From Patescibacteria group bacterium (GTDB taxonomy: Bacteria > Patescibacteriota > Patescibacteriia > 2-01-FULL-39-33), in NCBI GenBank assembly GCA_041649575.1, contig JBAZMW010000002.1:180001-212000 (forward strand): a DNA stretch of 32,000 bases. The letters are read 5' to 3'. The notes below the pieces were generated by a model. It saw only the letters and a program-made list of their open reading frames with translations. It was not told the origin of the DNA and searched no databases. Every line of letters begins with the position of its first letter. The stretch's first letter is position 1. Made by a program: the position numbers and the translations under genes. Shown piece by piece: positions 5,414-9,745 of the stretch.

Positions 5414-6904
5414 TAAGCGCTCCAGCGCTTGCCTGATTCTTAGTAAACTTTTTTCTGGTCCCAAAATTTCCGCCACCTCAAACGGCGTTGGCGATTTTTC
5501 CATTCCCGTCAGCGCCACTCTCATCGGCCACAGCACTTCGCCGTTGGTCAGATTGTTTTTAGTGATAAAAGTTTTTAATTTATTTTCCAATACTCCCCTT
5601 TCCCAGTCGCTGGCAGAATATTTTTCCAACTCCTGCAAAGTTAATTGCAAATTTTTTTTAGCCGCTTCCGCGCTAGATTTTTTCCAGACCAGCAAGCTCG
5701 GGTTATAACTTAGCTCAGCGGTAAAGAAAAAATTTATCCTCCCCCCTACTTCGTTCAAGCGGCTAACCCTTTCTTGTTCTAGTTTTAGTATTTTTTCCAA
5801 ATCCAAATCAGTTGGCATTTGACCGACATTCTTTTCCAAATACGGCTTGGCTAGTTGGGCAAATTTAGTATTGGTCAGTTTCTTAAGGTATTCGCCATTG
5901 AGCCAGTCTAGTTTGGCTAGATCAAAAATGGCTCCGGCCTTGTGCACCTTGGCCAGAGAAAAAGCCTGAATAAGTTCTGGCAGGAGAAAAATTTCTTGTT
6001 CAGTGCCCGGATTCCAACCCAAAAGCGCCACAAAATTTAGGAGCGCTTCCGGCAAATAGCCTTTGTCGCGGTAATCCTCCACCGCCACGTCGCCTTGTCG
6101 TTTGGACAGTTTGCTGCGGTCGGCGTTTAAGATCAGAGGCAAATGGGCAAACAGCGGCGGCGTCCAGCCCAAAAATTTGTACAACAATAAATGCTTTGGC
6201 GTCGAAGACAGCCACTCTTCGCCGCGAATGACATGGGAGATTTTCATCAGATGGTCGTCAACCACCGAAGCCAAGTGATAAGTCGGAAAGCCATCGGCTT
6301 TCAAGATCACTTGGTCGTCTATTTCCCGGCTACGAAATTTTATTTCGCCGCGAATCAAATCATTAAAAACCACTTCTTGATTTTCCGGCACCTTCATTCT
6401 GATGGTGTATTTTTCGCCGGCCGCCAACTTATTTTGCACTTCATCTGGCAACAGATGGCGGCAATGCCAATCATATCTGGTTGGCTGTTTGGCGGCCTCT
6501 TGCTGTCGGCGTAAATTTTCTAACCTTTCCTCACTGCAGAAGCAATAATAGGCCAAACCCTTATTTACTAGCTCGGAGGCGTATTTCTGATAGATTTCGA
6601 GCCTTTTAGACTGCGTGTAGGGCCCAAAATGGCCTTTTTCAACGGCTTTTCCGGCTTTATCGAGTATTACGCCCTCGTCGGGTTTTAGGCTCGCCCAAGC
6701 CAAATTTTTGAGCAAATTTTCTACCGCCCCCGGCACTTCCCTGGTTTGGTCGGTATCTTCGATTCTCAGCACAAAAGACCCTTTATTTTGTTTGGCAAAA
6801 ATATAGGCATAGAGCGCGGTGCGTAGTCCCCCGACATGCAAATAGCCAGTCGGACTCGGCGCAAAGCGGGTGCGGACCTTTAATTTGTTTAGAAAAGAAA
6901 ACAT
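5396..6904 (-). CDS. gltX: Glutamyl-tRNA synthetase
   Basis: Class I motifs RFAPSPTGYLHVGGLRTALY (HIGH-type) and KLSKRQG (KMSKS-type); 502 aa. Confidence 0.95.
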   Translation of the reverse strand: MFSFLNKLKVRTRFAPSPTGYLHVGGLRTALYAYIFAKQNKGSFVLRIEDTDQTREVPGAVENLLKNLAWASLKPDEGVILDKAGKAVEKGHFGPYTQSKRLEIYQKYASELVNKGLAYYCFCSEERLENLRRQQEAAKQPTRYDWHCRHLLPDEVQNKLAAGEKYTIRMKVPENQEVVFNDLIRGEIKFRSREIDDQVILKADGFPTYHLASVVDDHLMKISHVIRGEEWLSSTPKHLLLYKFLGWTPPLFAHLPLILNADRSKLSKRQGDVAVEDYRDKGYLPEALLNFVALLGWNPGTEQEIFLLPELIQAFSLAKVHKAGAIFDLAKLDWLNGEYLKKLTNTKFAQLAKPYLEKNVGQMPTDLDLEKILKLEQERVSRLNEVGGRINFFFTAELSYNPSLLVWKKSSAEAAKKNLQLTLQELEKYSASDWERGVLENKLKTFITKNNLTNGEVLWPMRVALTGMEKSPTPFEVAEILGPEKSLLRIRQALERLKTEKA

Positions 6905-7780: not shown

Positions 7781-8437
7781 CTACTTTTTTAGATAATTCA
7801 CGATGATTTTGGCCTGGCTCTGGTTTTCTTTGTCGTCCTTAAAAGACATCAGGCCAAAAATGTCGCCTTTCCAAAAGCCCAAATTAATTTCATAATCTGC
7901 CAGATTTTCCTTAAACTCAAAGCCGCTTTCCTTCAGCTTGTTTTTGTAGTAGCCGGCCACCTCTTCTTTCGGCTGGCTTATCTGTTTCCAGGACAAAGAG
8001 GTTGTTTCCATTTTTTTCAGTTCCGGCGAGCTTAGGGCTTTTTTTAATTCCTCCGGCGTAAAACCGCGCGACAAGTCTATTTTATCGGCAAAACTTTGGC
8101 TTAATTTAGCTTTCAAATCATTGGATAAATAAGCCAAAGTCGGCTTAAGCAGCCAGTTTGGTAAAAGGCCCATGATTTTCAAAAGTTTTTCCTTGCCTTC
8201 TGGCGTCTGCAGTTCAATCTCGGCTTTTTCCGGCAGATAAATGGCCAGTTCTTCCGGGAAATCACCCGGCAACTGGTTGACTTTTTCCACCACCGGAGAG
8301 ACCGCCAATCTGACAGCGGCAAAAAGAGTAATGAAGATAATTACCAACGCCAAAATTAAACAACCGAAAAATTTGATAAATTCTCGGCTTCTATTTTTTT
8401 CCGGATTGTTCAGGTTGAGTTCCTGCCAATTTTTCAT
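7781..8437 (-). CDS. Hypothetical membrane-anchored protein (single N-terminal TM)
   Basis: ATG at 8437 with ccAGGAaata upstream is preferred over the TTG at 8470 used by the track. TM FFGCLILALVIIFITLFAAV. No family recognised. Confidence 0.6.
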   Translation of the reverse strand: MKNWQELNLNNPEKNRSREFIKFFGCLILALVIIFITLFAAVRLAVSPVVEKVNQLPGDFPEELAIYLPEKAEIELQTPEGKEKLLKIMGLLPNWLLKPTLAYLSNDLKAKLSQSFADKIDLSRGFTPEELKKALSSPELKKMETTSLSWKQISQPKEEVAGYYKNKLKESGFEFKENLADYEINLGFWKGDIFGLMSFKDDKENQSQAKIIVNYLKK

Positions 8438-8483
8438 TATTTCCTGGCTAATTTTATTATATTCTAGCAAATACCAGCCTTTT

Positions 8484-8512
8484 TTGCAAAAGTAAATCAG
8501 TCTTGTTATAAT
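8484..8512 (+). promoter_or_regulatory. Sigma70-type promoter TTGCAA-N17-TATAAT (unit 1 of the island)
   Basis: TTGCAA at 8484-8489, a 17-nt spacer ending in TGT (extended -10), TATAAT at 8507-8512. Confidence 0.65.
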
Positions 8513-8518
8513 AAAAGT

Positions 8519-8725
8519 GGTTCATTTCCTCGAGACCCGAACTGGTCATTTGGGTCTCACCGCTCCGGTGGGGAAGCGAAACCAGCGCCTTCGCTTCCCC
8601 TCTGGCTTAACCAAAGCACCTTGGTAGCACTTCCCGGGTCTACTGAAAGCCGCATCCAGGCAAGCATTAGACCCGTTCCCGCTGTGGCGGCCGATGGCAT
8701 CAGTCATCAGCCGTCCTTTTTGTTT
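8519..8725 (+). ncRNA. Candidate structured ncRNA of about 205 nt, family not recognised
   Basis: Bounded by the promoter above and a hairpin plus T-run (GATGGC 8693-8698 / GCCGTC 8710-8715, then CTTTTTGTTT). Perfect stems: GAGACCC/GGGTCTC (8532-8538/8552-8558), GGGGAAGCGAA/TTCGCTTCCCC (8570-8580/8590-8600) and CGGGTCTA/TAGACCCG (8635-8642/8668-8675). No SD-preceded start codon. Confidence 0.5.
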
Positions 8726-8732
8726 ATCCACA
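8724..8732 (+). promoter_or_regulatory. Perfect TTATCCACA 9-mer (DnaA-box consensus), copy 1; part of a shared promoter-upstream motif
   Basis: Exact TTATCCACA, 31 nt upstream of the -10 hexamer of unit 2. The context TTATCCACAGtTAaaTATTTAT resembles the copy at 9120. Confidence 0.5.
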
Positions 8733-8760
8733 GTTAAATATTTATAACCAAAGAAATCTT

Positions 8761-8769
8761 TGCTATAAT
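8761..8769 (+). promoter_or_regulatory. Extended -10 promoter element TGcTATAAT (unit 2)
   Basis: TGCTATAAT at 8761-8769, with a weak -35-like TTTATA 17 nt upstream. Confidence 0.5.
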
Positions 8770-8775
8770 AAAATC

Positions 8776-9108
8776 ACATTGGACATGGGGCTTGTCAAAT
8801 GGCCCTGCAACCAGTCCGAACGGAGAACGAGCCATGAGAACAAAGACAACGAAGCGAGCAGCAGTGGGCGTGATGGTCGATGGCACCGGCGGAACAGCGT
8901 ACTTGGCGACGTCCTGACCTAACGAGAACGGTCGGACTGGGCGTCAAAGAAGTTCTCCGAGACGCTTGACTCAACCCAAGCGTCTCGCCGCACCTTAACT
9001 CTCCTCGGAGAGTTGTGACTATAGGTTTTCACGCTTTGACAAAGCGTGGACATCCCCCTAAGGTGAGCAGTCGGTTGCTGACAGGTAGCCGACTCTCTTT
9101 TTGTTTTT
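8776..9108 (+). ncRNA. Candidate transcript of about 330 nt: structured RNA and/or mRNA for a 27-aa peptide; family not recognised
   Basis: Strong terminator: 10-bp stem 9069-9078 / 9085-9094 (two G-U pairs), then CTCTTTTTGTTTTT. Long-range stem CCAGTCCGA (8811-8819) / TCGGACTGG (8932-8940). Hairpins GAGACGCTTG/CAAGCGTCTC (8959-8968/8977-8986), AACTCTC-ctcg-GAGAGTT (8997-9014) and CACGCTTT-gac-AAAGCGTG (9030-9048). Confidence 0.5.
8834..8917 (+). CDS. Possible 27-aa small ORF MRTKTTKRAAVGVMVDGTGGTAYLATS inside unit 2
   Basis: ATG 8834 with GGAG (8822-8825) 8 nt upstream; hand translated; enclosed by the 8811/8932 long-range stem. No other support. Confidence 0.3.
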   Translation: MRTKTTKRAAVGVMVDGTGGTAYLATS

Positions 9109-9119
9109 AAAAAATTTAG

Positions 9120-9128
9120 TTATCCACA
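9120..9128 (+). promoter_or_regulatory. Perfect TTATCCACA 9-mer, copy 2
   Basis: Exact TTATCCACA, 30 nt upstream of the -10 hexamer of unit 3, in the same orientation and relative position as copy 1. Confidence 0.5.
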
Positions 9129-9158
9129 GGTACTATTTATTTCTTTAAAAAATAGTTA

Positions 9159-9164
9159 TATAAT
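9159..9164 (+). promoter_or_regulatory. -10 hexamer TATAAT (unit 3, secreted-protein gene)
   Basis: TATAAT at 9159-9164 in an AT-rich stretch directly after the unit 2 terminator. The -35 is weak (TTTATT-like). Confidence 0.45.
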
Positions 9165-9253
9165 GAAAGTGCGGAAGGTATTTACGATAGCGTACAACCG
9201 AAGCAGGCCATCGGCCAAACGATCGGCCAAACGAAAGAAAGGTGGGACGGAAG

Positions 9254-9745
9254 ATGAGAAAGTTCGTGTTTTGTACGGTAGTACTGGCGTTCGCGTTTGT
9301 GATGATTCCGGCGACGAATACTCCGGCATACGCGACGCAACTCGATCAAGGCAAGGCAGTGGCGACGGCTCCGACGACGATGGGGACGACGCAGCAGGAC
9401 GTGCAGACGGCGATGAAGAGCAACCTGGTCCTCGACGGCACCGGGCAGAAAGTCGCTGAAGTGATGAAGGCGCCGACTCTTGACTCCGGACGAGTGATTG
9501 CGCAGACGGCGACGACGAAGACGGCACGCGAAGAGCAGACGAAGATCACGGCGAAGAGTGACACGGTTGTAACGGCGAAGATCGAAGCGCAAGGCATGGG
9601 CGAGCAGATGGCAGCGGCTGGCGAAGATGACGCTGGCACGATCATCGTGGCGACGAAGAGTGACACCTATGCGACGAGAATCGAGGGCCGTATCGCTCAC
9701 GACGCGGACGCGACCTTCAATGCGAACGTTCTGATCATCGGCTAA
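9254..9745 (+). CDS. Hypothetical secreted protein of about 163 aa, Thr/Ala/Lys/Gln-rich with an internal repeat; GC-rich cassette gene
   Basis: Signal peptide MRKFVFCTVVLAFAFVMIPATNTPAYA|TQ (basic n-region, hydrophobic core, AYA site). AGGTGGG lies 10 nt upstream of ATG 9254 (the track starts at GTG 9242). Repeat AKSDTVVTAKIE / TKSDTYATRIE. G/C-ending codons predominate. Confidence 0.7.
   Translation: MRKFVFCTVVLAFAFVMIPATNTPAYATQLDQGKAVATAPTTMGTTQQDVQTAMKSNLVLDGTGQKVAEVMKAPTLDSGRVIAQTATTKTAREEQTKITAKSDTVVTAKIEAQGMGEQMAAAGEDDAGTIIVATKSDTYATRIEGRIAHDADATFNANVLIIG

Follow-up and report, generated by a model that had tools for sequence, protein, structure and literature searches.

The window, meaning the whole 32,000-nt stretch of DNA analysed here, corresponds to C2:180001-212000 of a 920-kb Patescibacteria genome (five contigs, 97.9% complete) with a GC content of 43-46% and an intergenic share of ~9-11% of its DNA. 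A 1.8-kb gap between two genes of the window contains the element of interest, Unit 2, together with Unit 1, the Unit 3 gene and a fourth structured unit. The genes and named units around the gap are the following:

7781-8470, minus strand: hypothetical gene of 229 aa, one flank of the gap
8518-8724: Unit 1, directly upstream of Unit 2
8776-9108, plus strand: Unit 2, predicted transcript of ~325-333 nt with 55% GC, delimited by promoter and terminator positions
146 nt downstream of Unit 2, plus strand: Unit 3, gene for a secreted Thr/Ala-rich protein of 163-167 aa
other flank of the gap, plus strand: radical-SAM (AmrS-like) gene, assigned with Pfam

The best named relative of the flanking 229-aa protein is a Candidatus Buchananbacteria protein with 44% identity. 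The Unit 3 gene is preceded by a Shine-Dalgarno (SD) sequence and has its own DnaA box and -10, and 300 genomes from the class contain no relative of its protein; each of Units 1-3 is an orphan. Unit 1 is a 207-nt promoter-to-terminator unit without an ORF, and its fold stands out far more strongly than Unit 2's (z = -5.3; none of 200 shuffles reached its stability).

Unit 2 was delimited by a start placed 7 nt past the -10 and by an end placed from the terminator T-run. The elements identified in and just upstream of it, all on the plus strand and with pair probabilities (P) from the partition function where given, are:

8724-8733: TTATCCACAG, exact match to the DnaA-box consensus, with the -35-like hexamer 7 nt downstream
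8741-8769: sigma-70-type promoter, TTTATA, 17-nt spacer and extended -10 TGcTATAAT, 10/12 matches in a consensus scan
8787-8806: 5' hairpin GGGGCU / GGCCCU, pair probabilities 0.59-0.86
8811-8819: 5' arm of a possible 9-bp helix, CCAGTCCGA, exact reverse complement of 8932-8940
8822-8825: GGAG, an SD-like 4-mer with an ATG 8 nt downstream, in part paired in the model
8834-8917: 27-codon ATG ORF ending in TGA, encoding MRTKTTKRAAVGVMVDGTGGTAYLATS, of doubtful coding status
8932-8940: 3' arm of the possible 9-bp helix, TCGGACTGG, exact reverse complement of 8811-8819
8958-8968/8977-8987: perfect 11-bp hairpin with an 8-nt loop, P of at least 0.98 for the 10 inner pairs (8959-8968/8977-8986)
8997-9003/9008-9014: perfect 7-bp hairpin with a 4-nt loop, P of at least 0.99 for 6 pairs
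9028-9050: hairpin of 8 perfect bp plus a terminal G-U pair, 3-nt loop, perfect part 9030-9037/9041-9048, P of at least 0.90
9065-9108: intrinsic terminator, 3 + 11 bp stem with a GACA loop, then CTCTTTTTGTTTTT, P of at least 0.92

The consensus scan placed a single terminator at 9069-9094, followed by the CTCTTTTTGT T-run, on the same strand as the promoter, and a separate scan assigned it -20.7 kcal/mol, which bears out the strong terminator that an earlier note on this DNA had placed after the hairpins. A trans-acting sRNA gene has its own promoter and intrinsic terminator in intergenic DNA, and Unit 2 has both. The RNase P gene of this genome, with TTGACA, a TGn-extended -10 and a hairpin followed by TTTTTGTTTT, is written in the same grammar. 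The genome contains the DnaA box TTATCCACAG 18 times, in 14 cases between genes. Within the window, exact boxes (TTATCCACA, often with G as the next base) lie at 8724-8732 and 9120-9128. A spacing of 6-8 nt between DnaA box and -35 also occurs at Unit 3, C2:14001, C5:53663 and C5:58822, and this architecture, common to at least four other promoters, was counted as evidence for transcription of Unit 2. The placement of single boxes just upstream of several -35 hexamers suggests DnaA-dependent transcription, and since the -35 of Unit 2 is weak and preceded by such a box, its promoter may depend on DnaA. A cluster of three boxes at C4:4129, in the AT-rich island C4:3590-4227, is likely to be oriC.

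The RNA spanning 8776-9108 folds with a predicted energy of -123.8 kcal/mol and is more stable than all of 100 dinucleotide shuffles (z = -2.6). The non-random signal is concentrated in the 3' half, where the three stems and the terminator reach pair probabilities of 0.90-0.99. Three perfect hairpins of at least 7 bp were found in 0 of 2000 dinucleotide shuffles, the shuffle mean being 0.16. The three perfect downstream hairpins reported in the earlier note, of 10, 7 and 8 bp, all exist, the first of them being 11 bp long. Two of the hairpins of Unit 2 are near-perfect palindromes with centres of 1-2 nt. From its promoter, terminator and fold, Unit 2 is predicted to be a stand-alone structured transcript, as had been proposed.

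Folding of the 5' 170 nt, which include the mini-ORF, gives no dominant structure. This region had been described as organised by a long-range helix of 9 bp that encloses the SD and the ORF. The complementarity and its position are as described. The helix itself does not exceed chance and is thermodynamically unfavourable: 17.5% of shuffles contain a perfect 9-bp complement with a separation of 20 nt or more, the helix pairs have an ensemble probability of 0.001, and forcing them yields -117.9 instead of -123.8 kcal/mol, a cost of 5.9 kcal/mol. The helix belongs to the minimum-energy fold only of a transcript truncated at 8945. Once the sequence to 8990 is present it is displaced, and 8822-8828, including GGAG, then pairs with 8952-8958 (P = 0.32-0.34). 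In the model, 8781-8784 also pair with 8814-8817 (P ~0.63) and 8916-8919 with 8930-8933 (P of at least 0.87). Because such competing pairs replace the helix, the 5' half appears conformationally ambiguous rather than organised by it. A gating of translation by structure is not supported either, given the helix probability of 0.001 and an alternative SD pairing of only 0.32-0.34. As for the proposed closure of the molecule by its two ends, the 3' segment GGACATCCCCC is present (at 9048-9058, not 9049-9059) and the GGGG/CCCC pairing is not predicted, as 8787-8792 pair locally with 8801-8806.

GGAG at 8822-8825 and the ORF at 8834-8917 are both where they had been reported, and they bring in a first alternative, in which Unit 2 would be an mRNA for a protein of 27 residues, perhaps with a dual function, and would carry a long hairpin-rich 3' UTR that stabilises the message. 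The spacing of GGAG, 8 nt before the ATG, fits such a reading, as does the SD of the neighbouring Unit 3 gene, and the GC content at third positions of the ORF (16/26 by hand count) is within the normal range of the genome. Against it, 6% of shuffled versions of Unit 2 contain an ATG ORF of 27 codons or more behind an SD-like motif, a share that rises to 32% when GTG and TTG also count as starts. The SD is only a 4-mer in an SD-poor genome: GGAG, GAGG or AGGA occurs at -16 to -5 of ~10% of 530 long ORFs versus 6.4% of random positions, and the regions upstream of long ORFs are A/T-rich, with G at only 7-15% at every position, although the 16S rRNA 3' end reads CACCTCCTTTCT. As motifs of the GGAG type are barely above background at the ORFs of the genome, an SD is weak evidence of translation here. 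In the predicted ensemble, accessibility at the SD and AUG does not exceed that of the remaining RNA. The peptide lacks a hydrophobic segment, has no paralogue in the genome's own sequence (tblastn) and, as a 41-aa TTG-extended form, no homologue among 5.8 billion protein clusters. Pfam gave nothing meaningful for six small ORFs of Unit 2 (the 27-codon ORF and five others, on both strands), and no frame of Unit 2 matched a protein family. TGA is the stop in 127 of 808 crude genes and is thus an ordinary stop in this genome, with no sign of an alternative genetic code. The suggested architecture, a helix that encloses an ORF and gates its translation, is therefore not upheld, both the helix and the ORF being at chance level and the peptide having neither homologue nor paralogue.

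The comparison with other units of the genome weighs on both sides. A strict scan for intergenic promoter-to-terminator units with the size and GC content of Unit 2 returned only a handful in the whole genome. The units compared with Unit 2, besides Unit 1, are:

C1:69986-70315, plus strand: cassette for a small protein of 55 aa, AGGAG 8-9 nt before the ATG
C1:234220-234540, minus strand: cassette for a small protein of 66 aa with two transmembrane/hydrophobic segments, AGGAG 8-9 nt before the ATG
C5:53663-53970 (unit 53711-53970), plus strand: GC-rich unit of ~260 nt without an ORF, with a DnaA-box promoter and a terminator

The two C1 cassettes, which clearly encode small proteins, resemble Unit 2 in length (320-330 nt), GC content, extended -10, structured leader of 60-90 nt, SD 8-9 nt before the ATG and strong terminator. 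They differ in that their ORFs of 55 and 66 codons occupy 50-62% of the transcript, compared with 25% for the 27 codons of Unit 2, whose ORF is followed by 190 nt of hairpins. The C5 unit begins with ACGAACATTGGAAGG, which resembles the start of Unit 2, ACATTGGACATGG. Unit 2 is thus intermediate between coding cassettes and ORF-less units, so the small-protein reading, unlikely as we consider it, retains substantial weight.

The ORF has also to be considered as a Thr-rich leader peptide which, together with an attenuator, would govern read-through into Unit 3. Three Thr codons lie among its codons 3-6, and Unit 3 follows on the same strand after 146 nt. However, three autonomous hairpins (P of at least 0.9) separate the stop codon from the terminator, ~150 nt away, inspection of the sequence shows no convincing anti-terminator pairing, and Unit 3 has a DnaA box and a -10 of its own, all of which makes this arrangement very unlikely.

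The Rfam scan that the earlier note had called for gave no match within Unit 2 with Rfam 15 at the gathering threshold. At a permissive E of at most 10, the region 8300-9400 contains three weak matches, all upstream of Unit 2, so that no known family is found in it even at this level. The earlier exclusion by eye of RNase P, tmRNA and SRP RNA agrees with this result. The tmRNA of the genome lies at C3:161668-162059 (111.6 bits) and its single RNase P RNA at C1:239999-240397 (160.6 bits), and ARAGORN found in the window only tRNA-Gln and no tmRNA. The small and large bacterial SRP RNA models have no match in the genome, nor in 34 family genomes. Ffh and FtsY are absent too, as no SRP54-type GTPase or Ffh M domain was found and a motif check agreed, and for this reason the idea of a hidden SRP RNA in Unit 2 was dropped. 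The SRP pathway as a whole seems to be missing from this 97.9%-complete genome. A search with PF00448 in 61 genomes of the class gave P-loop-level matches only, while every control genome scores.

A highly diverged housekeeping RNA, such as a 6S RNA that Rfam models miss in Patescibacteria, is the least probable of the readings considered, and we regard it as extremely improbable. It would account for the lack of any 6S RNA match (RF00013) in the Unit 2 region or in the whole genome. However, no Rfam family is detected at E = 10 within 8776-9108. 6S RNA is ~185 nt long and forms a rod with a central bubble, while Unit 2 far exceeds that length with 333 nt and folds as a string of separate hairpins. 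A housekeeping RNA should moreover be conserved, and Unit 2 has no homologue in the relatives.

Unit 2 was also compared with mobile and repetitive elements. A degenerate pattern has been published for the Ssn-related motif (SRM/NTS) hairpin repeats (Chenal et al. 2025, PMC11893778). It matches three sites in the genome and, in the window, one at 6204-6233 on the minus strand, inside the gltX coding region. Unit 2 does not match it and is single copy according to BLAST, to 13- and 14-mers and to BLAST against 37 other GC-rich islands; one shared 16-mer sits in an unrelated radical-SAM gene. A retron, a DGR, an intron and a CRISPR were likewise set aside, as neither a nearby reverse transcriptase, nor a long TR/VR-type repeat, nor an Rfam match was found.

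The search for relatives of Unit 2 covered ~460 Patescibacteria genomes in all. BLAST gave no match in 60 relatives, in phages or in plasmids, and in 400 genomes from across the phylum its only matches were 20-40 nt long and either AT-rich or due to chance. The syntenic gaps of 26 family genomes contain no homologue, and in 100 relatives only chance-level matches were obtained with covariance models built for the 3' half (42 pairs) and for the 5' half (with the 9-bp helix). Having no homologues, Unit 2 is without support from covariation or conservation. For the flanking 229-aa protein, identities to relatives do not exceed 49%, whether in metagenome contigs, in genome contigs or in the 5.8-billion-cluster protein collection, which indicates that the collections searched contain no congeneric genome. 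The synteny of the 229-aa membrane-protein gene with amrS is kept in seven relatives from different genera (L014, L017, L018, L023, L025, L026 and L030). In these, the gap of 250-850 nt holds a promoter, strings of GC-rich near-perfect hairpins with CU-rich linkers, and a terminator. The gap sequences align neither to Unit 2 nor to one another, even within one genus. At these loci amrS seems to be leaderless, with its ATG preceded at a distance of a few bases by a -10-like box.

Hairpins of this kind are also frequent elsewhere in the genome. With a minimum stem of 9 bp, 65 GC-rich perfect hairpins lie in the intergenic 11% of the genome and 24 in the coding 89%, a density per base ~22-fold higher in intergenic DNA. 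Forty-two of the 65 lack a T-run and are thus not terminators, and 37 of the 40 non-tRNA GC-rich intergenic islands examined have no Rfam match. Since hairpins are abundant across the intergenic DNA, Unit 2 is one instance of a genome-wide habit, which can be read either as many young RNA genes or as accretion of hairpins at the DNA level. In the latter case Unit 2 would be functionless, a piece of young, fast-turnover GC-rich hairpin DNA at a gene junction, arisen by palindrome accretion or from decayed insertions, with its hairpins serving at most as extra terminators or insulators between the adjoining genes. The intergenic enrichment, the many non-terminator hairpins and the islands outside Rfam are consistent with this, as are the unrelated, unalignable hairpin strings at the same junction in seven relatives, the orphan status of all three units and the two near-perfect palindromes with their 1-2-nt centres. 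Junk, however, would have no need of a strong terminator and, on the same strand, a well-formed promoter whose DnaA box keeps a recurrent spacing. Unit 2 is furthermore single copy, has no repeat in common with the other islands and does not match the SRM pattern published for Ssn-type repeats. We consider a functionless Unit 2 rather unlikely, and somewhat more so than a small-protein mRNA.

Unit 2 is a single-copy promoter-to-terminator unit with three non-random, stable stem-loops, outside the catalogued RNA and protein families. We infer its transcription and prefer a non-coding small RNA to a small-protein mRNA or functionless DNA. More precisely, our tentative preference, with a probability of roughly 40%, is for an independent gene, restricted to its lineage, whose product is a small RNA of ~325 nt, highly structured and most likely non-coding, the 27-codon ORF being presumably incidental. 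Transcription would start ~7 nt past the extended -10 and stop at the strong intrinsic terminator, as the sequence signals predict. The 3' 170 nt would form three independent and very stable stem-loops besides the terminator hairpin, in line with the folding statistics, and these stem-loops may make the RNA long-lived. Acting in trans, the RNA could then bind a protein, or it could base-pair by means of its pyrimidine-rich single-stranded linkers (CACCUUAACUCUCCUC, CAUCCCCCU). A promoter and a terminator on one strand around a gene-free GC-rich body, in a grammar that the RNase P gene shares, argue for such a gene, and the existence of ORF-less sibling cassettes (Unit 1 and C5:53711-53970) points in the same direction. 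Arguing against it, perfect stems without G-U pairs or bulges are equally typical of young or DNA-level palindromes, and two similar cassettes of the genome encode SD-preceded small proteins. Searches for partners of the RNA were negative: a duplex-energy scan of 805 translation start regions gave mRNA targets no better than shuffled controls, and no antisense 13-mers to Unit 2 were found by k-mer complementarity.

A broader reading, which we regard as improbable, assigns Unit 2 to a class that is still undescribed in Patescibacteria, that of rapidly turning-over "hairpin-string" RNAs. Its members would be GC-rich promoter-to-terminator units, some with DnaA-box promoters, that occupy the same junctions with unrelated sequences in every genus, for example between the membrane-protein gene and amrS. 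They may be lineage-specific regulators or decoys, some of them doubling as small-peptide mRNAs.

To our knowledge, almost nothing is known of regulatory RNAs in Patescibacteria (candidate phyla radiation), and a literature search on sRNAs of the phylum and on AmmeMemoRadiSam regulation gave nothing useful. The genome is tiny, yet ~9-11% of it is intergenic sequence rich in GC hairpins. Should Unit 2 and its siblings be expressed as stable RNAs, the phylum would gain some of its first candidate sRNAs, together with a hint that small RNAs are under DnaA-linked control. For now, Unit 2 is an unconserved candidate, useful as an entry in a target list for metatranscriptomics and not a discovery in itself.

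Several known systems offer a comparison. Dual-function sRNAs that encode a small peptide include SgrS/SgrT, RNAIII/delta-haemolysin and SR1/SR1P, in which the ORF and the base-pairing region are both conserved and experimentally shown. Unit 2 resembles them in having a short SD-preceded ORF inside a longer RNA with additional stem-loops, and differs in that its ORF is at chance level and without homologues. With the SRM/NTS and REP-type repeats (PMC11893778) it shares GC-rich perfect hairpins in intergenic DNA; unlike them, it is single copy and does not match the SRM pattern. Compared to orphan trans-acting sRNAs, Unit 2 is longer than most (~325 nt), all its stems are perfect, its host belongs to the Patescibacteria and it is a candidate from sequence alone. 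Like their genes, it is intergenic and has its own sigma-70-type promoter, an intrinsic terminator and stable 3' stem-loops, and, like these RNAs, it has pyrimidine-rich single strands and no conservation outside a narrow lineage. Unit 2 is a reasonable, if ordinary, orphan sRNA or small-ORF candidate.
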